The notes beneath the pieces are model-generated. The model searched no databases. It saw only the letters and a program-made list of their open reading frames with translations, and was not told where the DNA came from. The translations under genes were made by a program, and so were the position numbers. This document shows, piece after piece, positions 4,901 through 42,187 of a stretch of 64,000 nt of DNA. Origin of the DNA: a virus; UHGV virus genome UHGV-1963645; one strand, 5' to 3'. The number at the start of each line of letters is the position of its first letter. The first letter of the stretch is position 1.

Positions 4901-7888
4901 ATGAGCTTAAGCGATCAGGTGGTAATGGCCACCAGCATAGAAACGCTGATCGAGCTGCTAAAGAACCTGCCCGATTATGGGCGGGTTTCGTATGTGGTGA
5001 CAGCGAAGGGAGACGAGGTAAAAACAGCGTTTGATATCGTCGATGCCTCAGCTCTTTTGGTATCCAATACTCTGGATGGGAAAATTAATCCTGACTATCC
5101 CCAGGAACTTCAACCGCGCGACCGGACCCGCGCATCCAGCCTTCTTCAGGTTAACCAGATATCCAAGGATTTGCGGCCTGCTCAGCTTACCGATTCCGGT
5201 CTATCCAGCCATGGCGCGCCGATAATTGGTGAGGACAATGCCGTTGAGTCAGGTAATGGACGGACCATGGGGATCATTAAAGCCTATCAGGACGGCAATG
5301 CGGATCGGTATCGTGAGTACCTGATTGATCATGCGACCGAATTCGGCATACGACCTGAAAAGGTTGAATCAATGACGGCTCCGGTACTGGTGCGCCGCCG
5401 GTTAACTAAGGTTGACCGCGTTCAGTTTGCCAAGGACTCAAATATTTCTGATCTTCAGGAAATGGCAGCCAGTGAAAAGGCTTTTGTTGATGCCGACAGC
5501 ATAACACCGGCGATGATGGCGCTTTTTAACCCGTCAGAAAGCGGAGATCTGCTTAGCCGCAGTAATGACACGTTTATTCGCGGATTTATGACGCAAGTTG
5601 GTGCCACACAGGCGGCTGGCCTTGTAACTGAAGATGGGCGACCAACACGGCAACTTGTAGACCGTATACAAAACGCGATCTTTGCCAAGGCATATAAGGA
5701 TGCGCGCCTGGTAAGGATGGTTGCAGAAGAACCTGATCCGGATATGCGTAATGTTCTGACGGCGCTTAATGCGGCAGCCAATGATTTTGTCCAGATGCAG
5801 GCTTTGTCAGGAGAAGCGCACAAGCAGGCTGTGACAACTATTGTTGATGGCATTGAGACAGCGGATAGCCTCGATAAAAAGGCGCTGGCGGCATTGAAAG
5901 ATGCGGTAGACCTGGTAAGGCAATCGAAGGAGTTAGGCCAGCATATTACCGATGTTATTGCTCAGGGGGATATGTTCAGCGAAACGGCCCCGGAAGTGAA
6001 AGCACTCGCGTTGTTCATCGTCGCGAATAACCGTAGCGCGAAGCGTATGGCCACCGCCTTTAAGTTGATGGCGCAACGTATCAATGATGAGTTACAGCAC
6101 CAGGGCCAGGCGCTCGGGGATATGTTTGGCGGCGGCGATGTGTCGTTACAGGATATCCTTCGCCAGGTGTCTCAGGAACTGGAAAACGAAGGCATGCAAG
6201 GGATATCCGGCGGTCTTTTCGAGTCCGTTTCCGGCGGTAGTTACAACGGTGTTGCTCCGTATACCAGTTTGCTATTACATCGGGCATCCGGCATCAAAGA
6301 CATTATTCATCTGATCAGGCTGCTTTCCCGCACAGATCCCCAGGATGAACAGCTTGTACAAGTGCTTGCGCATTTTGTTCGAATGCCTGTTGCCGACGTG
6401 AATAAATGGTGCCGATTATTCGGTATCAGCAATTCGTTACTTCGCGGATTGTTAAATCACGCATCCTCCCTTGGGCGCGACGGCTTTGATGAGATAGCGC
6501 AGGCGATACAAAACGGAGATATGCCACCAGCTATTGACTGGTTTTCCATTCGCCCAACCAGGGTGAAAGCATTCCTTAGCGCGGCGCATTCGGCATCACC
6601 ATTGGCAGAAATGGTTCAGAGGTTGTCGCTCATATTCACAGACCATACCGCGTTGGGTGATCTGACTCTGGACGAGATGAAAGAAGCCTCCATTCAGTGG
6701 GCCGATCAACAAAATGAGGTTAACTCAGACTTCTTGCCAGCATTCAGGAAGGCCGTTAGTAAAGCGGATGATTCCCGTGGAATTCTGAAGGCATTTAAGG
6801 CATTGCAAAGTCGGGTTAATAAACATGTCGGAGATATCGATGGGGTAACGGCGGAAGGCAGGGATATCCTTAAAGAGCACGGCATAACGCCAGAGTTTAT
6901 TGATGAGATCAGGACGGATATGCAGCGTGAGGTCGTATCGTCCCTGCAAATTGTAGCCAGAGCGTTGGCGGATGCTAATCCGAAGAGTGCGGCCATTGTT
7001 AACCGGGTTATTGGTGATATTGAAGCATCGGAGGGCATGGGGGCGCTGAAACTCTTCCTTTCGCGAGCGTTTAATCCTAACGGCAATATTCTCCCTGGCA
7101 TTATTGGTGAGGCTAAAAAGTATGTCAGTGAAGAAGAACTTGAGCAGCTTGACCAACTACTTAAGCGATTCTCATATAACCCGCAGACACGCTGGCAAAT
7201 GAATCAGCGAAGTATGGGTTCGGTCCACGAGAAAGTGTTATCTGCCATGAACAGTGCGATCGCAAACTCATCCGTATCTGAAGAAAAAGCTCTTGAGTGG
7301 GCCGACTCTTTTATCACAGAAGAAGTGGAAGAAGCCCGCGCTGGACAGAATGGTGGGATAGACCTGCGCAAGGAACTTGCTGATATTTATCGCCTGACCG
7401 GCGGGGAAATATCGACCTTATCAAAGGTAGTTCACCACCAGGGAAGGGCATATGCAAATCTAAATGGTGTTGTTGCTGTCAATTTGAACGATGAAAATGC
7501 AAGTGCACTGTGGCACGAGCTGGGTCATCATCTTGAGTACAGTAACCCCGGTTTGTTAGAGAAAGCCCGGTCATTCCTGAAGGCCAATGTTGAAGGGGAT
7601 AAGCCATCTTTCGTCAATATCGGTGGGCGTGGCAAGCCTGAATGGTGCTTCAGATCTCGATTGAGTAATATTTATATGGCGAAGGTATACCCGCCAGCCT
7701 CAGTAAGTAACACCGGGAAAATTCGGCAGAAATCACCGACTATTTCCAAAACGTCAGCAACGGAAGTATTCTCTATGGCTCTTCAGTTGTATCATGACAA
7801 AGAGGCCGCTGCCGCATCACTGATGAATGGTGACGGATTGCTGGAACTGTTATTAGGTGTGGCAAAGGAGCTAAATAATGCAGATTAA
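4901..7888 (+). CDS. ddrB: DdrB-like large anti-restriction-operon protein
   Basis: 995 aa ORF downstream of darA/ddrA; assigned by synteny and size. Confidence 0.65.
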   Translation: MSLSDQVVMATSIETLIELLKNLPDYGRVSYVVTAKGDEVKTAFDIVDASALLVSNTLDGKINPDYPQELQPRDRTRASSLLQVNQISKDLRPAQLTDSGLSSHGAPIIGEDNAVESGNGRTMGIIKAYQDGNADRYREYLIDHATEFGIRPEKVESMTAPVLVRRRLTKVDRVQFAKDSNISDLQEMAASEKAFVDADSITPAMMALFNPSESGDLLSRSNDTFIRGFMTQVGATQAAGLVTEDGRPTRQLVDRIQNAIFAKAYKDARLVRMVAEEPDPDMRNVLTALNAAANDFVQMQALSGEAHKQAVTTIVDGIETADSLDKKALAALKDAVDLVRQSKELGQHITDVIAQGDMFSETAPEVKALALFIVANNRSAKRMATAFKLMAQRINDELQHQGQALGDMFGGGDVSLQDILRQVSQELENEGMQGISGGLFESVSGGSYNGVAPYTSLLLHRASGIKDIIHLIRLLSRTDPQDEQLVQVLAHFVRMPVADVNKWCRLFGISNSLLRGLLNHASSLGRDGFDEIAQAIQNGDMPPAIDWFSIRPTRVKAFLSAAHSASPLAEMVQRLSLIFTDHTALGDLTLDEMKEASIQWADQQNEVNSDFLPAFRKAVSKADDSRGILKAFKALQSRVNKHVGDIDGVTAEGRDILKEHGITPEFIDEIRTDMQREVVSSLQIVARALADANPKSAAIVNRVIGDIEASEGMGALKLFLSRAFNPNGNILPGIIGEAKKYVSEEELEQLDQLLKRFSYNPQTRWQMNQRSMGSVHEKVLSAMNSAIANSSVSEEKALEWADSFITEEVEEARAGQNGGIDLRKELADIYRLTGGEISTLSKVVHHQGRAYANLNGVVAVNLNDENASALWHELGHHLEYSNPGLLEKARSFLKANVEGDKPSFVNIGGRGKPEWCFRSRLSNIYMAKVYPPASVSNTGKIRQKSPTISKTSATEVFSMALQLYHDKEAAAASLMNGDGLLELLLGVAKELNNAD

Positions 7889-8189
7889 AATCGCAGCGCC
7901 ATTAGGCGGAGATGCCATTATCGAATTTGATGATAATGAAGAAGTTTCCGGGCGTTTAAGCATTATCTCCGGTGACATTACCGAGGACATGATCGCTGAA
8001 GCCATAGCTGGGGCAAATCCCAATAGCTATATGGGATTCGTTAACACCCTTGATGCTCCCGCAAGTGATGTTCTCCGAACGCTGCATCTTTACGCTGGCT
8101 GGTTTGTTGATTGGCCAGCAGTAGATGGTGGCGATGAGGACGACGACGACGATGATTTTGGTGATCATGTAGACCAGATCGTATATTGA
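7878..8189 (+). CDS. hypothetical protein with poly-acidic C-terminal tail
   Basis: AAGGAG SD before ATG; overlaps ddrB stop; C-terminus DGGDEDDDDDDFGDH. Confidence 0.5.
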   Translation: MQIKIAAPLGGDAIIEFDDNEEVSGRLSIISGDITEDMIAEAIAGANPNSYMGFVNTLDAPASDVLRTLHLYAGWFVDWPAVDGGDEDDDDDDFGDHVDQIVY

Positions 8190-8192
8190 AGA

Positions 8193-8217
8193 AATCCCGC
8201 CAATCGGCGGGATTTTT
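8193..8217. terminator. bidirectional rho-independent terminator between convergent operons
   Basis: AATCCCGCC-AATC-GGCGGGATT hairpin followed by TTTTT. Confidence 0.6.
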
Positions 8218-8220
8218 ACC

Positions 8221-9315
8221 TCACGAGAAGCTTTTTTCTGATGTCAGCCAACAGTGCTCGTGCAAATCTCTTGGTGGTTTTTCGACAAATGCCTCTTCAG
8301 CCACATCCTGCCAGGGGATTTGTTTAGCCCATTCAGTTATAGCGTTATGGTTTGCCGAGAATAACGGTATTGTATAGGCCTTCAGCCAGTCTAATGTGCT
8401 GGAGTTGTGTTTTTGAGCGTGATGTTTCGCATGGTGTTTGGCGATCACGATCGTAGGCACTACCCATTTACTACCGTCAGTCATTGTGAAGTGCATATTA
8501 CGGGGAACAGATGACTTTTCCATCAACTCCCGAATCCCGGGGAATTTCCCCAAGATCAATCGGCGATATTCATCGCTATTGCGCCCACCAAACTCTTTGG
8601 CTTTGAATTCAAGATATGCTTCAGAAACGAGAGGTGAATCCTCTGTGTTTAGAGTTATCGCCGTGAAAAAACCAGCAGGATTGTTTTTACTATGGGCCAA
8701 CCGGTGATGCGAATCATAAAAGTACCCTTTCTCGCGTTCCGATGGTTTCGACAGCAACAGCAGGCGCGAGTCATAATTGGTTAAATTGCCAGTTATCACT
8801 GCATGAGCGCGATCGCTGATTTCCGCCGAGTTAATAACGATGAAAAGATCGTGCGGTCCAGTAAAACCAGCCAGAGACTCTTCGTTATTCAGACAATAGG
8901 TTATATAGACGCATCCCCATGTTTCACTGATATGCACCAACCCTTTGTCAGGGTGTATTCTGAAATAATTGCCAAGAAAAGGGTGTTTTTGGGTAACTCG
9001 CTCCCAATAACGGAACATATAGTCAATTATTGTTTTTCGACTATCGTTAATAGCAGGAGAAACAACCACTGTACGGGAACACGAATACAGTATTGTTTGC
9101 AGGATGCTAATCACTGCCACAATAGAGGTTTCCCCAATACCATGTGGTGTGGTGGCAGTGACTTTGGCTCCGGTGTTCTTTATCGCGTTAATAATTTTTG
9201 CTTGATGAGGTGTTAACTCAATATCAAGCAACTCTTTCGCTGCCAGTTCCCAATTGTCTTTATACTGTTCTATCAGTGCTAACCAGGCAGATTCATTCTG
9301 TATACGATTAATCAC
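8221..9315 (-). CDS. terminase large subunit (PacB) N-terminal ATPase-domain paralogue with degenerate Walker A/B
   Basis: 364 aa; clear alignment to PacB of this window over about 250 aa; Walker A GHGTGKS becomes PHGIGETS, Walker B IIDEA becomes VINSA; lacks C-terminal nuclease region; GTG start overlapping upstream stop. Confidence 0.75.
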   Translation of the reverse strand: MINRIQNESAWLALIEQYKDNWELAAKELLDIELTPHQAKIINAIKNTGAKVTATTPHGIGETSIVAVISILQTILYSCSRTVVVSPAINDSRKTIIDYMFRYWERVTQKHPFLGNYFRIHPDKGLVHISETWGCVYITYCLNNEESLAGFTGPHDLFIVINSAEISDRAHAVITGNLTNYDSRLLLLSKPSEREKGYFYDSHHRLAHSKNNPAGFFTAITLNTEDSPLVSEAYLEFKAKEFGGRNSDEYRRLILGKFPGIRELMEKSSVPRNMHFTMTDGSKWVVPTIVIAKHHAKHHAQKHNSSTLDWLKAYTIPLFSANHNAITEWAKQIPWQDVAEEAFVEKPPRDLHEHCWLTSEKSFS

Positions 9316-10222
9316 TTTCCACCTCTTCCGTGGTGTTTTCTCGCAGTTCTGTTAATGCAGCACGACACAGGTTCCGGGCTTTGGCTATAGCCACACTTTT
9401 TACCTCATCCGTCATTGTGCAGGTAATGTACTGATCGAGTTCTTCAGCTCGGATGATGCTTTTCCCTATCATAAACTCTATTTGCCAGAGCAGATCGGCA
9501 TCCATCGCCAGTATTTCAGCCTGGCCTTCTGGGCCTGCGGGGAAGCAAACATAAGACTGTTTGCCCAGGCCGATAACTCGACAACTTGCTTCAAGAATTG
9601 CACGCTTGAGGTCTGACTTTGTAACTGAAACAGGTTGATTTTCACCTGTGATTACGCCGTTGACATGGACGTGGAAGGGCATGTAGCTTGAAATTCGCTC
9701 TACTTTCCATACGCCAGCAAGCGATCCTTCATGCAGCACGATGGGGGTAACCGCGAGTTTCATCTCACCATATAACTGCTGGCAGATAACTGGATTACTG
9801 AATACATCCAGAGGTTCACACTCAAACAGCGGCGCAATCTGCATGAGGTCCATCATGGTCATACCAGGGGTACGAGCAGTAATGAATTTGCGCATACCAG
9901 TATCCATTGCGCTCCAGATTGCTACACCATGCTTTTTGCTCACTTCTTCAGTAAAGCCAAGGTGGCACATGATGGTTTTTTCGATAGCCAGATCGGAGAT
10001 AGAAACCTTTTCGCCAGGTACACCATCATTATTGATGGTCACTTCGACACTCTGGCCATTACGCAGGCGGTATTGAATTGCTTTAGTATTTTGTGCTGCC
10101 ATAGTCTTTTCTCTGCTTAAAAACTGATGTATTGCGCCTTCAGGTGGGTCAGGAATGTTTTCCCACCAGCGAAAGCAATATCTCGGGGTGTTCTTTTCGT
10201 GAAAAGCGCGTTCCATTGCCAA
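9308..10222 (-). CDS. hypothetical protein, coupled upstream partner of the PacB-like gene
   Basis: 304-aa ORF (track start is TTG); alternative ATG starts at 10216 and 10102; no recognisable domain. Confidence 0.5.
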   Translation of the reverse strand: MAMERAFHEKNTPRYCFRWWENIPDPPEGAIHQFLSREKTMAAQNTKAIQYRLRNGQSVEVTINNDGVPGEKVSISDLAIEKTIMCHLGFTEEVSKKHGVAIWSAMDTGMRKFITARTPGMTMMDLMQIAPLFECEPLDVFSNPVICQQLYGEMKLAVTPIVLHEGSLAGVWKVERISSYMPFHVHVNGVITGENQPVSVTKSDLKRAILEASCRVIGLGKQSYVCFPAGPEGQAEILAMDADLLWQIEFMIGKSIIRAEELDQYITCTMTDEVKSVAIAKARNLCRAALTELRENTTEEVESD

Positions 10223-10304
10223 CTTTGGCGTTTTTTAGCGAGTTCGTGCTTTTGTTGGCGTTTGGACCACCGCTTTTCTTTCAGTCGTTTTTTACTCATA
10301 AACT

Positions 10305-10793
10305 CTAAAACGGAATATCGTCTTCAAAGTCCATTGGAGGTTCGTTATTGGCGCTGCTCTGAGGTTTGCCGCCACCGCTGTATTGCTGGTGGTTTTGAGG
10401 TTGGTTTGACTGCCCCCAGCCATTTGAGGACTGTGAATCGTCGCGGCGAGCGCCGATCATTTGCATGGTGCCGCCCTGGCTGACGATAATTTCCGTCGTG
10501 TAACGTTCTACACCGGCGTCATCTGTCCACTTACGGGTTTTAAGTTTCCCTTCGATGTAGACCTGAGAACCTTTTCGTAAATACTCACTCGCGATTTCAG
10601 CAAGTTTTCCGAACAAAACGACTTTATGCCATTCTGTTTGCTCTTTCTGTTGGCCTGTTTGCTTGTCGCGCCATGATTCATTCGTTGCGATGCTGAGTCT
10701 TCCGACTGCTCCGCCATTTGGTATATACCTGATATCTGGGTCTTGTCCCAGGGTACCTATCAGGATGACTTTATTTACACCGCGTTGTGCCAC
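10305..10793 (-). CDS. ssb: single-stranded DNA-binding protein
   Basis: OB-fold SSB sequence with Gly/Gln-rich linker and C-terminal DFEDDIPF tail. Confidence 0.95.
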
Positions 10794-10812
10794 TTATCTC
10801 ACCTAATAAAAT

Positions 10813-10829
10813 AAATTAATTAGAGCAAT
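10813..10829 (-). promoter_or_regulatory. C1 repressor operator (1 mismatch to ATTGCTCTAATAAATTT)
   Basis: AAATTAATTAGAGCAAT between divergent ssb and lyz. Confidence 0.6.
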
Positions 10830-10853
10830 AATGTATATCTTTGAAACGTAGCT

Positions 10854-10872
10854 AACAAGTGATTTGCATTAT
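10854..10872 (+). promoter_or_regulatory. candidate Lpa-dependent late promoter
   Basis: AACAAGTGA element followed by -10-like hexamer; same element upstream of prt and the tail cluster. Confidence 0.4.
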
Positions 10873-10962
10873 CCTGTACCTTCTAAAGGGATCGAGTCAG
10901 TCGGTATTGGCTGTGAATGGGTGTTTGTCCTGGAGCGTAAAAAATTCGCTTATGAGGTCTTT

Positions 10963-25661: not shown

Positions 25662-25678
25662 AGAATTATTAGAGCAAT
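25662..25678 (-). promoter_or_regulatory. C1 operator (immC)
   Basis: AGAATTATTAGAGCAAT. Confidence 0.65.
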
Positions 25679-25738
25679 AAATTTTGAGAGAAAAATCCCA
25701 CTCCACCAGCCAAAAACTGGATTGTTTTTCATAGTTGT

Positions 25739-25766
25739 TTGACAATTGCTCTAATAAATTATAGTT
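25739..25766 (+). promoter_or_regulatory. candidate promoter of the coi-c1 operon overlapping a C1 operator
   Basis: TTGACA then operator ATTGCTCTAATAAATTA (25745-25761) then TATAGT-like -10. Confidence 0.55.
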
Positions 25767-28873: not shown

Positions 28874-28890
28874 CAATTTATTAGAGCAAA
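28874..28890 (-). promoter_or_regulatory. C1 operator upstream of the small-gene/antirepressor-like pair
   Basis: CAATTTATTAGAGCAAA just downstream of pacB stop. Confidence 0.6.
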
Positions 28891-28893
28891 TAT

Positions 28894-30378
28894 TCATTCG
28901 TTAAGCCATGCCAGAGCTTCATCAACCTGCGCTTCGTCTTCGACGCTAAGCACTTCATCCTGGGGAACATAATCCGCCAGCATAGCGAAACAATATGTAT
29001 CCCAATGGTCTGGTGAGTGCAGGTTGAGTTTTTTCTTCATATCCTCCTTACTCATCACCTTCCATTGACCTGCGGAGTTAATCCCTACAGGGATTTTCGA
29101 CGCTTCCTCAATAGTTTCATTACCCTTATCCAGTCTCATACGACCAGATTTTACGGCCTCTGCGGCTTGAACGTTGGCATAAGCACGTTTATCAAAGTAC
29201 AGGCTCTTATCTTCACGGCTATGCATCTTTTTACCCCAGCGTATACGCTGTACGGTAATACCATAATACTCGTACATCAGATCCGCCGTTGCTTTACCCA
29301 GGCCATCGCCGTCTATCGCTATGGTGATATTTGGGAATCGCTCAGGATTACATTCTGCGAAAATTTTGGCGGCAAGCTGCGTTTCTGTAACGTCTGTGTA
29401 TTCCAGCATTCGATAGTTGATTACACGGCGTTTATTTCGCTGGCCGGACACCATCATGATATTGATAACGGACTTATCCCGTCCCGTACCACCAGCAACG
29501 TCCACACATGCAAGCCAGCCCCATCCTTTTGCAATCTTGACTTTCCGCCGCGTTGCACGTTCAACCTCATCACGTCCAAGAAGGAAGCCATCCTGTGATT
29601 TAGGGAATAGGCCGCGTACCTTAATCATGTACATAGGGTTATCACGCCCGCCGTACTCCGCCAGCTTCATTTTGATAAATGCTGGCGTTACCAACGGTGA
29701 TTCCTCACTGTTAAGCGTGATCGCCGTATAAACGCCATCAGGGTTACCAGGACGCTTGGCCAGTTTATGGTGTGTATCGTAGAAATAGCCGCTTGGGCGT
29801 GTAGGCTGTGACAGCAATAAGATGCGGTTATCCTGTCCGGTAAGAGCACCGGTGATGATACCGAAAGCTCTATCACTGACACCGGAGGCTTCATCGATAA
29901 TATACAGAAGATGATCTGCGTGTTCACCGGCGAGAGCTTCTTCACTTCCCAGACGAAAGCCCTTCGGTACTACAGTCCATACACCTTTACCAGTAATCTC
30001 ATAGAAAGCGGTTTCTGTCAGAACAAAATAATCAGCAAGCCATGGGAAACGGCTGGGGGCAGTAGCCCAGTTTATCTTGATGTACTTGAATATACCGGTC
30101 ATTACCTGCTGAATTTTGTTCGCAACGATAATGGCACGGGCACCTGGATACATGATTATGAACAACATGATCATGATAGAAGTCATGTCTGATTTCCCGG
30201 TACCGTGACCAGACGAAACAGATGTCTTGCTACCCTGTTCCTGCACAGACTCAATAATCAGATCCTGCTGCCAGGTAGGTGTTTTGCCGAACAAAACATC
30301 AGCGGCAGCAATCCAGTCATAACGATATAGCGCCACCAGCTCGCGCCAACGTGGATCCGTTACGCAACTTCTGGCCAT
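28894..30378 (-). CDS. pacB: PacB, terminase large subunit
   Basis: 494 aa; Walker A GHGTGKS, Walker B IIDEA; matches P1 PacB length and N-terminus [11 protein letters not shown]. Confidence 0.95.
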
Positions 30379-31571
30379 TAATCATCATCCCCGTATAGCT
30401 TGCGGGTAACTTCTTCGTCTTCCTCCTCGTCTTCGTCCAGGTCTTGTTCCAGCCATGGGTCGTTTGATACACCTTCAGTATCAACATCTCCATAACCGCC
30501 TGTATCAACGATATCGGCGATTTCTTCCCTACGCTGCTCAATCCACAATGCGGCATCGGCGCGGCGGTTGGCGGCCCGTTCTCGCGCAACTTTGTCCAGA
30601 TCTTCAAGAGAAGGGCCACCGACGGCTGTTTGCCTTTCCTCATCATCGGTATTGGTCTTAGGAGCACGCAGATCGGCTTTGATTTGCTCCAGCATCAGGG
30701 GCGGCACTTTTCCGCCATGCGCCTCGATGAATTCAGCTGCTTCCAGCACTGACCAGTTATTTTCACGCTTTCGTTCGTATGCCAGCTTAACAATGCCAGC
30801 TTGCCCCATAGATAAAGCGTGCTTTTCCGCCTCCCGGCTTTCTTTTCGATAGTTATTCCGGATGCTGTAAATGGTGTTGATCAGGCTGCTTATCTGCGCG
30901 GAACAGCTGTTTAGCATGCTCGCGATACGATATTCAGGCGGAGTCCCTTCATCATCGTCTTTTTGCTGATCGCGCATTTCCTGCACCAGACGAATACACG
31001 TATCCCTGGCATTCTCCAGCATAAGGAGATGAGAAAGAGACTTTTCCAGAAGAGTGGTTTCCAGAACATCGGCCCCGGACCGACGCAACATAGCGCGCGC
31101 AGCCTTCCGCGCTTCAACGTTATCTATCAGGTAATCGCCAGCTTCGAATTCAAAGCGTTCACCATCATCATCCAGGGTGTCGCGTTCCAGGCGATCACGT
31201 AAGGTCCGGTGGGCGCGGGTGATCACGTCATGATCATCAGAACGATCATTTATGCGCTTATTTTGGCGCTTCGCATTCTCGACTGCGGCACTGACAACGG
31301 CATTAACCCTTTGTTTTTCCGCTATTTCAGCCGCAATGTGATCACCTGCATGTTGATCATTAGAGTGATCAATGATCATGCTTTTTAGTGGCTTCCTGAC
31401 TGGCTTATTTGGCTTGCGGCTGTCCGCTGTCCTGGTGTCTTCTTTGAAGGCACGGAGATAACGACGTGCAGTATTAGGGTTAAGATTAAACTCGGCGGCA
31501 TACTGTGCGATGGTGTAACCACCATCTCGCGCCAGGCGAGCAAAATTCTTCTTGTGATCGTCCCAGGTCAC
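30378..31571 (-). CDS. pacA: PacA, terminase small/pac-recognition subunit
   Basis: 397 aa starting [20 protein letters not shown]; acidic C-terminus; contains pac site. Confidence 0.95.
31215..31385. other. pac packaging site inside pacA
   Basis: two clusters of TGATCA-type Dam hexamers, 3 at 31221-31247 and 4 at 31340-31377, about 100 bp apart. Confidence 0.75.
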
Positions 31572-42170: not shown

Positions 42171-42187
42171 AGATTTATTAGAGCAAT
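42171..42187 (-). promoter_or_regulatory. C1 operator (1 mismatch)
   Basis: AGATTTATTAGAGCAAT at 3' end of pap-like gene. Confidence 0.65.

Follow-up and report, generated by a model that had tools for sequence, protein, structure and literature searches.

We found that a P1-type phage-plasmid, analyzed here as a 64-kb stretch of the virus genome UHGV-1963645 (the window), carries besides its canonical large terminase gene, pacB, a second gene, terL-N*, whose product is a pseudo-enzyme: TerL-N* has the ATPase fold of a terminase large subunit (TerL), but has lost the residues of the ATPase site as well as the nuclease domain. The gene is kept by purifying selection and stands last in a mobile cassette that is probably expressed early. 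We are confident of the structural and evolutionary part of this conclusion, that is, of the pseudo-terminase identity, the loss of motifs and nuclease, the selection and the mobile-cassette history. As the best explanation of the whole, we suggest far more tentatively, with a probability of roughly one in three, a selected pseudo-terminase in a mobile early cassette that most likely serves in counter-defence. The interval 7800-10900, which contains the gene, is 98% identical to MH422554 and MH445380, and is matched only in part by reference P1; terL-N* lies there between isaA and the convergent hxr gene, in a unit that begins with ssb, and apart from the pacA-pacB packaging module (Table 1).

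An initial annotation of the window had described a further TerL paralogue in which the ATPase motifs are dead and the nuclease domain is missing, and the BLASTP, fold, motif and hhalign data agree on this description. The open reading frames that it reported have the coordinates and lengths given for them (TerL-N*, 8221-9315, minus strand, 364 aa; an upstream partner, 9308-10222, minus strand, 304 aa from a TTG start; PacB, 28894-30378, minus strand, 494 aa). TerL-N* is 35% identical to PacB over residues 11-272 (266 aa aligned; BLASTP E 4e-54), and the alignment strings quoted earlier for this pair were correct when re-checked with BLASTP. In profile searches, TerL-N* matched phrog_5902 (E 2.7e-186) and also phrog_2. 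Structure prediction and fold search, which the initial annotation had called for, gave a confident TerL ATPase fold: an AF2 model built on a 57-sequence TerL alignment had a pLDDT above 90 over residues 1-260, the top Foldseek matches in the PDB were the TerL ATPase domains of HK97, Sf6, P74-26, T4 and D6E (E 1e-8 to 1e-5), and the matches in BFVD, a viral structure library, were TerLs exclusively. Neither TerL-N* nor its upstream partner, IsaA, had a match in Pfam, in NCBIfam or in sequence searches of the PDB (where the IsaA profile gave noise only), and neither matched a defence-system family of PADLOC-DB 2.0 at E up to 0.1. Judged by its sequence, TerL-N* belongs by descent to the PacB-type TerL superfamily.

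The catalytic motifs of this superfamily are degenerate in TerL-N*. Residues Lys62, Asp161 and Glu162, each at least 90% conserved in the 57-sequence alignment, are Glu62, Ile161 and Asn162 in TerL-N*; thus, the motif loss survives profile alignment, which did not restore the Walker residues. As had been proposed, the Walker A lysine is replaced by glutamate (SGHGTGKSD in PacB, TPHGIGETS in TerL-N*). Both acidic residues of Walker B are likewise gone, although the pairing offered earlier was one residue off, since BLASTP and MAFFT both set YIIDEASG of PacB against FIVINSAE. The degenerate Walker A sequence GIGET is invariant across 22 related loci (21 IMG/VR loci and MH422554), in which IN[SA]A is also conserved, and motif III is variable across the dead TerL-N clade. 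Moreover, a position-by-position comparison of 8 dead with 30 intact relatives revealed that the dead forms have lost all of the at least 90%-conserved positions in Walker A (SGHGTGKS), the TA..Q segment, Walker B (DEASG) and motif III (SQPT), while they have kept the Q-motif, the N-terminal helices, GYFYDSHH, EDSPLV and the YGGR..LGxFP lid region.

Only about 100 residues follow the ATPase domain, and residues ~270-364 make up a separate domain. A nuclease domain is absent, in that hhalign of these residues against PacB-type nuclease domains gave a probability of 0.1%, the same as that of the control. MAFFT had placed this C-terminal segment of about 95 aa as a nuclease remnant, a placement that is refuted both by the hhalign result and by the occurrence of the segment on its own, in P0261 (123 aa) and in gp35 of Cronobacter phage JK004 (98 aa). 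The domain also ends a 511-aa DUF1351 protein of Xanthomonas phage CP2, and 20 positions are invariant across these proteins; its pLDDT in the AF2 model is below 50. It is an uncharacterized mobile domain without a Pfam family. In CP2 (L035, 1765-3300), the DUF1351 fusion gene stands beside genes for DUF2303, Erf, an exonuclease and SSB, and in JK004 (L034, 4010-4306) the gene for the 98-aa protein is two genes downstream of one for a DnaB-like helicase. Among six features of a working terminase, TerL-N* has only the TerL-type ASCE ATPase fold; it lacks the Walker A lysine, the Walker B acidic pair, motif III, the RNase H-like nuclease domain and a site beside the small terminase or portal genes. 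Thus, the label "terminase large subunit" that some records attach to this gene is misleading.

Several observations indicate that TerL-N* is kept by purifying selection. The open reading frame is intact, at 364 codons, in 22 of the 22 related loci; dN/dS (Nei-Gojobori) is 0.26-0.27 in comparisons with the two copies that diverge most and 0.22 when these are compared with each other; and an orthologue with only 49-53% identity has equal length, the same domains and the same gene overlap. A HMMER search of 1.8 billion representatives recovered 737 relatives, of which the nearest intact ones are PacB-like. The closest relatives overall are short, with 230-366 aa (444 aa in one case), and terminate directly after the ATPase domain. 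These short TerL-N proteins fall into at least 11 clusters, and 11 of 11 representatives have neither the Walker A lysine nor the Walker B acidic pair, whereas nearly all of the full-length relatives (~470-580 aa) retain both. We found dead TerL-N genes only in P1-related phage-plasmids of Enterobacterales. In a neighbor-joining tree, in which long-branch attraction could contribute to the grouping of the dead clade, a core of 8 dead clusters grouped with 62% bootstrap support and all 11 together with 9%. As to a single or a multiple origin of the 11 clusters, monophyly of all of them is not supported by these sequences. A search of IMG/VR for related loci with P0141, P0142 and P0144 yielded none.

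Dead TerL-N genes also occur in other settings. In the Citrobacter freundii plasmid NZ_CP114569 (L031, 4333-5789), the 3' end of the gene for a Ref-family HNH nuclease (222 aa) overlaps by 4 nt with the gene for a 263-aa dead TerL-N, which is inserted between ref and mat; thus, both partner and locus differ from those of the isaA cassette. In Leclercia plasmids, a dead TerL-N gene stands alone among plasmid-maintenance genes.

The upstream partner of TerL-N* had been described as an unknown protein of 304 aa with no recognizable domain. We likewise recognized no domain, but the protein is not unknown, as it is 95% identical to P1 IsaA over 304 aa and matches phrog_2326 (E 7.7e-149); nor is it likely to have 304 residues. 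The phrog_2326 match begins at residue 44 of the 304-aa open reading frame, IsaA orthologues start with MENTK, and the sequence upstream is the leader of another gene (see below); thus, the real start of isaA is almost certainly ATG 10102 (264 aa) rather than TTG 10222. In P1, isaA is non-essential (PMC10695390). The AF2 model of IsaA had a pLDDT of 38.5. The proposed translational coupling of terL-N* to this partner is borne out by the sequence of the junction, where isaA and terL-N* overlap by 8 nt (GTGATTAA) and a GAGG Shine-Dalgarno sequence lies 6 nt upstream of the GTG start. We considered that IsaA might be a degenerate PacA, such that the pair would be a duplicated pacAB, and rejected this (BLASTP E 91; hhalign probability 0.2%); a kinship with Ref was also rejected, since IsaA resembles neither Ref nor any other nuclease. 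Distant IsaA homologues, P0019 and P0021, are on contigs of less than 2 kb. P0021 and P0018 look frameshifted, as does the homologue in GCA_974481825.1 (L024), and pseudogenes or assembly errors may explain all three of these; L024 also has a second, partial match to the leader and IsaA N-terminus, upstream.

The leader fused to isaA comes from a gene for a Tad2-like protein (DUF2829). Residues 1-65 of the Tad2-like protein of SJ46 match window positions 10270-10076 with 80% identity (tblastn), and the gene is intact in SJ46, Ro157c2YLVW and four related loci (L003, L005, L009 and L020), where its product matches Pfam PF11195 (E 1e-21), and deleted in the window and in P1. The deletion seems, from the sequences on its two sides, to have joined similar 5' ends (MNNMTTKE... 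and MENTKAIQ...) to give the hybrid start MAAQNTK. The fusion thus accounts for a spurious 40-codon N-terminal extension of the 304-aa open reading frame, and the identical deletion in P1 for the over-long 320-aa isaA annotation there.

Comparison of loci shows that the unit was ancestrally a cassette of three genes, Tad2-like / isaA / terL-N*, with terL-N* last. The cassette recurs with overlapping genes in region RD-2 of the P1 group and between dut and doc/phd in D6-group phage-plasmids (rep_cluster_1704), and since these are different loci, the cassette is mobile. In the D6-group loci L032, L033, L036 and L037, the order is a cre-like recombinase gene, two genes for hypothetical proteins, dut, the Tad2-like gene, isaA, terL-N* and the convergent doc-phd. 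IsaA and TerL-N* of the D6 type are 45-48% and 49-53% identical to those of the window, and their genes overlap by 11-14 nt. In every P1-type and D6-type locus inspected, isaA is directly upstream of terL-N* and overlaps it. The Tad2-like proteins of the P1 and D6 groups have 225-281 aa, and those of the four D6-group loci above 220-233 aa; they extend N-terminally past the Tad2 domain, which spans 73 residues. In PLSDB, about 120 plasmids have the window-type gene and about 42 the type with ~50% identity, among about 784 with a PacB-type match; IsaA is found in 474 plasmids, often without a TerL-like gene.

The slot after isaA is variable. Region RD-2 is a recognized variable region that has been described only as such (PMC6906374, PMC9603915), and P1, P7 and SJ46 lack terL-N*. 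SJ46 has the Tad2-like gene and isaA, and there isaA ends directly at the hairpin that in the window comes after terL-N*; thus, terL-N* is a clean one-gene indel. The slot is occupied in Ro157c2YLVW (L028, 2103-2390) by a 95-aa open reading frame without a Pfam match that is unrelated to terL-N*, in P7 by nmpC, and in P1 (L001, 1999-2604) by IS1 and isaB (201 aa; phrog_30162, function unassigned), likewise unrelated. We therefore discard the earlier suggestion that terL-N* represents, in intact form, a gene disrupted by IS1 in P1: isaB is unrelated (E 0.055), the indel is clean, and tblastn found no terL-N* remnant in the RD-2 locus of P1, SJ46 or Ro157c2YLVW. The ends of blastn alignments had hinted that P1 keeps the first 24 nt of terL-N*; the junction shows that homology effectively stops at the isaA stop.

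The transcription unit led by ssb, which had also been proposed earlier, was corroborated by its flanking signals. A C1 repressor operator lies just upstream of ssb, the coding strand showed no terminator-like site ahead of the hairpin at 8187-8223, and this hairpin ends the unit. From this arrangement, early, C1-controlled co-transcription of ssb, isaA and terL-N* is likely. Nine C1-operator-like sites (ATTGCTCTAATAAATTT, up to 2 mismatches) occur in the window, compared to 0.05 expected by chance. They are at 10813-10829, 25662-25761, 28874-28890, 42171-42187, 47937-47953, 58355-58382 and 61888-61904; the one at 28874-28890 is just downstream of the pacB stop, and 58355-58382 is an overlapping pair.

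We considered that TerL-N* might act against immunity that senses terminase. The large terminase is the best-documented protein pattern by which Avs1-3 and Upx detect tailed phages, and the look-alikes vs.8 and Ksap1/2 have been noticed only recently (PMC13601566, PMC11564622). For EcAvs2 and Upx, the ATPase domain of TerL suffices as an activator; recognition by Avs2 involves the ATP bound to TerL together with a bridging ATP, and SeAvs3 senses ATP as well as residues of the active site (PMC13601566). These results give more substance to the link with immune sensors, for which the initial annotation had listed a decoy as one option. Moreover, the stand-alone TerL-ATPase paralogue vs.8 of T4 causes toxicity when combined with EcAvs2, and the authors of that work raise the possibility that such proteins are anti-defence factors (PMC13601566). 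Counter-defence genes are also neighbors of terL-N*, in that the cassette includes the Tad2-like PF11195 gene and the dar anti-restriction operon (hxr, ddrB) is adjacent; Tad2 is reported in 93% of D6 and 56% of P1 phage-plasmids (bioRxiv 10.1101/2025.09.12.675607). By analogy with these systems, counter-defence against terminase-sensing immunity is a possible role for TerL-N*, and the one that we rank first among the individual roles, followed by modulation of packaging and then by an early function in DNA metabolism. TerL-N* would be made early in lytic growth, ahead of the late PacA and PacB. With its ATP site lost, it should be incapable of TerL-like ATP binding or hydrolysis and would act by binding rather than catalysis. 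As a TerL look-alike, it could interfere, possibly together with IsaA, with host sensors of the TerL ATPase domain (Avs1-3, Upx). Avs2 and Avs3 are activated through contacts with ATP and with the active site, which the loss of the nucleotide site would preclude; a look-alike that lacks this site could occupy the sensors yet leave them inactive, or could at least escape setting them off. In its most specific form, which we regard as unlikely, the dead TerL-N proteins of the P1 and D6 groups would be dedicated antagonists, early ATP-blind copies that titrate Avs1-3 or Upx before the real terminase appears, with IsaA and the C-terminal domain aiding in targeting.

Several points weigh against counter-defence. 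The link to anti-defence is one of guilt by association, the transcription timing derives from P1 annotation, and TerL-N* has no match in PADLOC, Pfam or NCBIfam. We found no paper on the terL-N* gene in the literature on inactive terminase paralogues or terminase decoys. Each of the three cassette genes has been lost separately in some loci, which argues against an obligate complex. Furthermore, a protein that lacks the ATP site may not bind Avs2 or Avs3 at all, and would then be invisible rather than inhibitory. Other features fit other roles: the ssb operon, the Ref gene upstream of the Citrobacter dead TerL-N, and the C-terminal domain near DnaB or Erf, exonuclease and SSB point to DNA metabolism, and the retained PacB-like N-terminal helices and lid region fit binding to the phage's own packaging partners equally well.

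The last of these points brings up packaging itself, for which a regulatory role, also among the options of the initial annotation, is conceivable, although on balance we doubt it. A dead TerL-N that keeps the PacB surfaces for PacA, PacB subunits, DNA and the portal could act as a modulator or competitor, as a non-hydrolyzing subunit; it might restrain premature pac cleavage of the phage's own genome early on, or might poison the pacase or motor of a co-resident rival of P1 or D6 type. TerL motors are oligomers, and a dead subunit could therefore be dominant negative. TerL-N* comes from the phage's own TerL lineage, with nearest intact relatives of PacB type, only its catalytic motifs are gone while the other conserved segments are shared between dead and intact forms, and the restriction of dead TerL-N to P1-related phage-plasmids of Enterobacterales is that expected of a lineage-specific partner. 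However, P1, P7 and SJ46 package normally without TerL-N*, such that it is not part of the core mechanism, and TerL-N* appears to be expressed with the early genes, unlike the late pacAB. Moreover, its gene lies in a hot spot beside counter-defence genes, and neither the added C-terminal domain nor IsaA has a connection to packaging. We think it quite improbable, less so than the readings that follow, that TerL-N* is instead an early DNA-metabolism factor, in which a non-catalytic ASCE-fold module would bind DNA or protein and take part, along with SSB, IsaA or a nuclease (for instance Ref), in the replication, recombination or repair of phage DNA, with the C-terminal domain as adaptor. Likely co-transcription with ssb, the overlap of a related dead TerL-N gene with the stop of the Ref-family nuclease gene in the Citrobacter phage-plasmid, and the replication and recombination neighbors of the C-terminal domain in JK004 and CP2 favor this role. 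Yet these associations may mirror only a shared early timing, the D6-type cassette is not beside ssb, DNA binding by the dead ATPase domain is conjectural, and IsaA does not resemble a nuclease.

A role in the prophage is very unlikely. The cassette would in this case shield the lysogen through defence or exclusion, for example by sequestering the small terminase or portal of other phages; P1-like variable regions do also carry defence genes (bioRxiv 10.1101/2025.09.12.675607), and the Leclercia genes sit among plasmid-maintenance functions, but the unit lies behind a C1 operator in the window and should be repressed in the lysogen, and PADLOC gave no match. Least probable of all is that terL-N* is a functionless relic of an old duplication or capture of pacB in neutral decay. 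The patchy distribution of terL-N* and the loss of all catalytic motifs and of the nuclease domain speak for this reading, but it is largely refuted already by the intact reading frames with dN/dS of ~0.25, by the orthologues that keep length, domains and gene overlap at 49-53% identity, and by the gain of an extra domain with 20 invariant positions across distant phages.

Table 1. Features of the terL-N* region and of the packaging genes used for comparison (positions in the window).
Feature	Coordinates	Strand	Description and basis
TerL-N* gene (terL-N*)	8221..9315	-	364 aa; GTG start 9315-9313, TGA stop 8223-8221; ORF list, BLASTP, phrog_5902
TerL ATPase-like domain, residues 1-262	8530..9315	-	AF2, Foldseek, BFVD
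Degenerate Walker A	9124..9150	-	TPHGIGETS vs PacB SGHGTGKSD; Lys62 to Glu
Degenerate Walker B	8821..8844	-	FIVINSAE vs PacB YIIDEASG; Asp161 to Ile, Glu162 to Asn
Degenerate motif III (coupling motif)	8740..8751	-	SKPS vs PacB SQPT
C-terminal domain of ~95 aa, no assigned function	8224..8508	-	TMxDGSxWxVP...PLF...WA...W..V...W...EK
Coupling junction	9308..9325	-	GAGG Shine-Dalgarno 9322-9325; GTG of TerL-N* 9313-9315; isaA stop TAA 9308-9310
isaA	9308..10102	-	264-aa IsaA (P1 gp017 family, phrog_2326); ORF continues upstream to TTG 10222
Remnant of deleted Tad2-like (DUF2829) gene (leader and first codons), joined to isaA start	10076..10270	-	tblastn
ssb	10305..10793	-	first gene of the unit
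C1 repressor operator (Op21/Ossb equivalent)	10813..10829	-	ATTGCTCTAATTAATTT; 1 mismatch to consensus; P1 annotation of homologous site
Terminator hairpin common to the convergent hxr and TerL-N* genes	8187..8223	-	dG -20.7 kcal/mol, z -5.5
hxr	7878-8189	+	convergent with the TerL-N* gene
Canonical pacB (TerL, 494 aa)	28894..30378	-	intact Walker A/B and nuclease domain; comparator
pacA-pacB pair	28894-31571	-	packaging module of the window

We also noted two features of the genes around the cassette. A very basic open reading frame of 60 aa (MSKKRLKEKRWSKRQQKHELAKKRQ...) at 10117-10299 on the minus strand starts 6 nt past the ssb stop and shares sequence, in a different frame, with the Tad2-like leader remnant; it is unlikely to be a gene. 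The Hxr match ends at residue 81-82 in most related loci (L002-L023), and Hxr of the window and a few other loci has 103 residues with an acidic DDDDDD tail; thus, the C-terminus of Hxr is variable beside the shared terminator.

These findings describe a conserved, selected family of terminase look-alikes with systematic loss of the nucleotide site, which travels with a Tad2-like gene in clinically relevant P1 and D6 phage-plasmids, and they bear on whether terminase mimics serve in immune evasion, packaging control or DNA metabolism. The system is directly testable, since P1 genetics is easy and natural isolates exist with and without terL-N*. They also correct database records, in which a gene labeled "terminase large subunit" cannot act as one, and clarify the structure of RD-2 and the true extent of isaA. 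If the dedicated-antagonist form of the counter-defence proposal were true, it would be the first phage case in which a pseudo-enzyme copy neutralizes pattern recognition of the protein that it copies, and it would suggest a function for vs.8-like proteins.

Among known systems, P1 PacB is homologous to TerL-N* over the whole ATPase domain and shares its predicted fold, Q-motif, N-terminal helices and lid motifs. TerL-N* differs in that it lacks Walker A/B, motif III and the RNase H-like nuclease, and has the ~95-aa domain instead; its gene belongs to the early ssb unit within a variable region, does not lie beside pacA and is absent from P1. Its partner belongs to the family of P1 IsaA (gp017, IS1 insertion-associated gene A), although the 320-aa call in P1 and the earlier 304-aa call in the window include the leader. 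The anti-Thoeris sponge Tad2 (DUF2829, PF11195) has its counterpart in the same-domain gene that leads the cassette in sister loci and in D6-type plasmids; the window keeps only its leader and first codons, and the P1/D6 versions are longer, with a putative activity. Ksap1 and Ksap2, non-terminase activators of KpAvs2 whose secondary structure resembles that of the TerL ATPase, are similarly small, lineage-restricted proteins of unassigned function (PMC11564622, PMC13601566), but they have no clear TerL sequence homology, whereas TerL-N* is an unambiguous TerL homologue. The closest known functional analogue, to judge from the parallels, is T4 vs.8, which we compared by description only. Like vs.8, TerL-N* is an accessory, lineage-restricted homologue of the TerL ATPase domain of its own lineage, without a nuclease, encoded away from the packaging module and without an assigned function; in contrast to vs.8, which keeps Walker A/B (PMC13601566), TerL-N* has lost both, and it has the extra C-terminal domain and the coupled IsaA. 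Each of the two derives from its own TerL lineage. Thus, TerL-N*, for whose gene we found no published description, is a pseudo-enzyme TerL derivative that parallels the vs.8 type.

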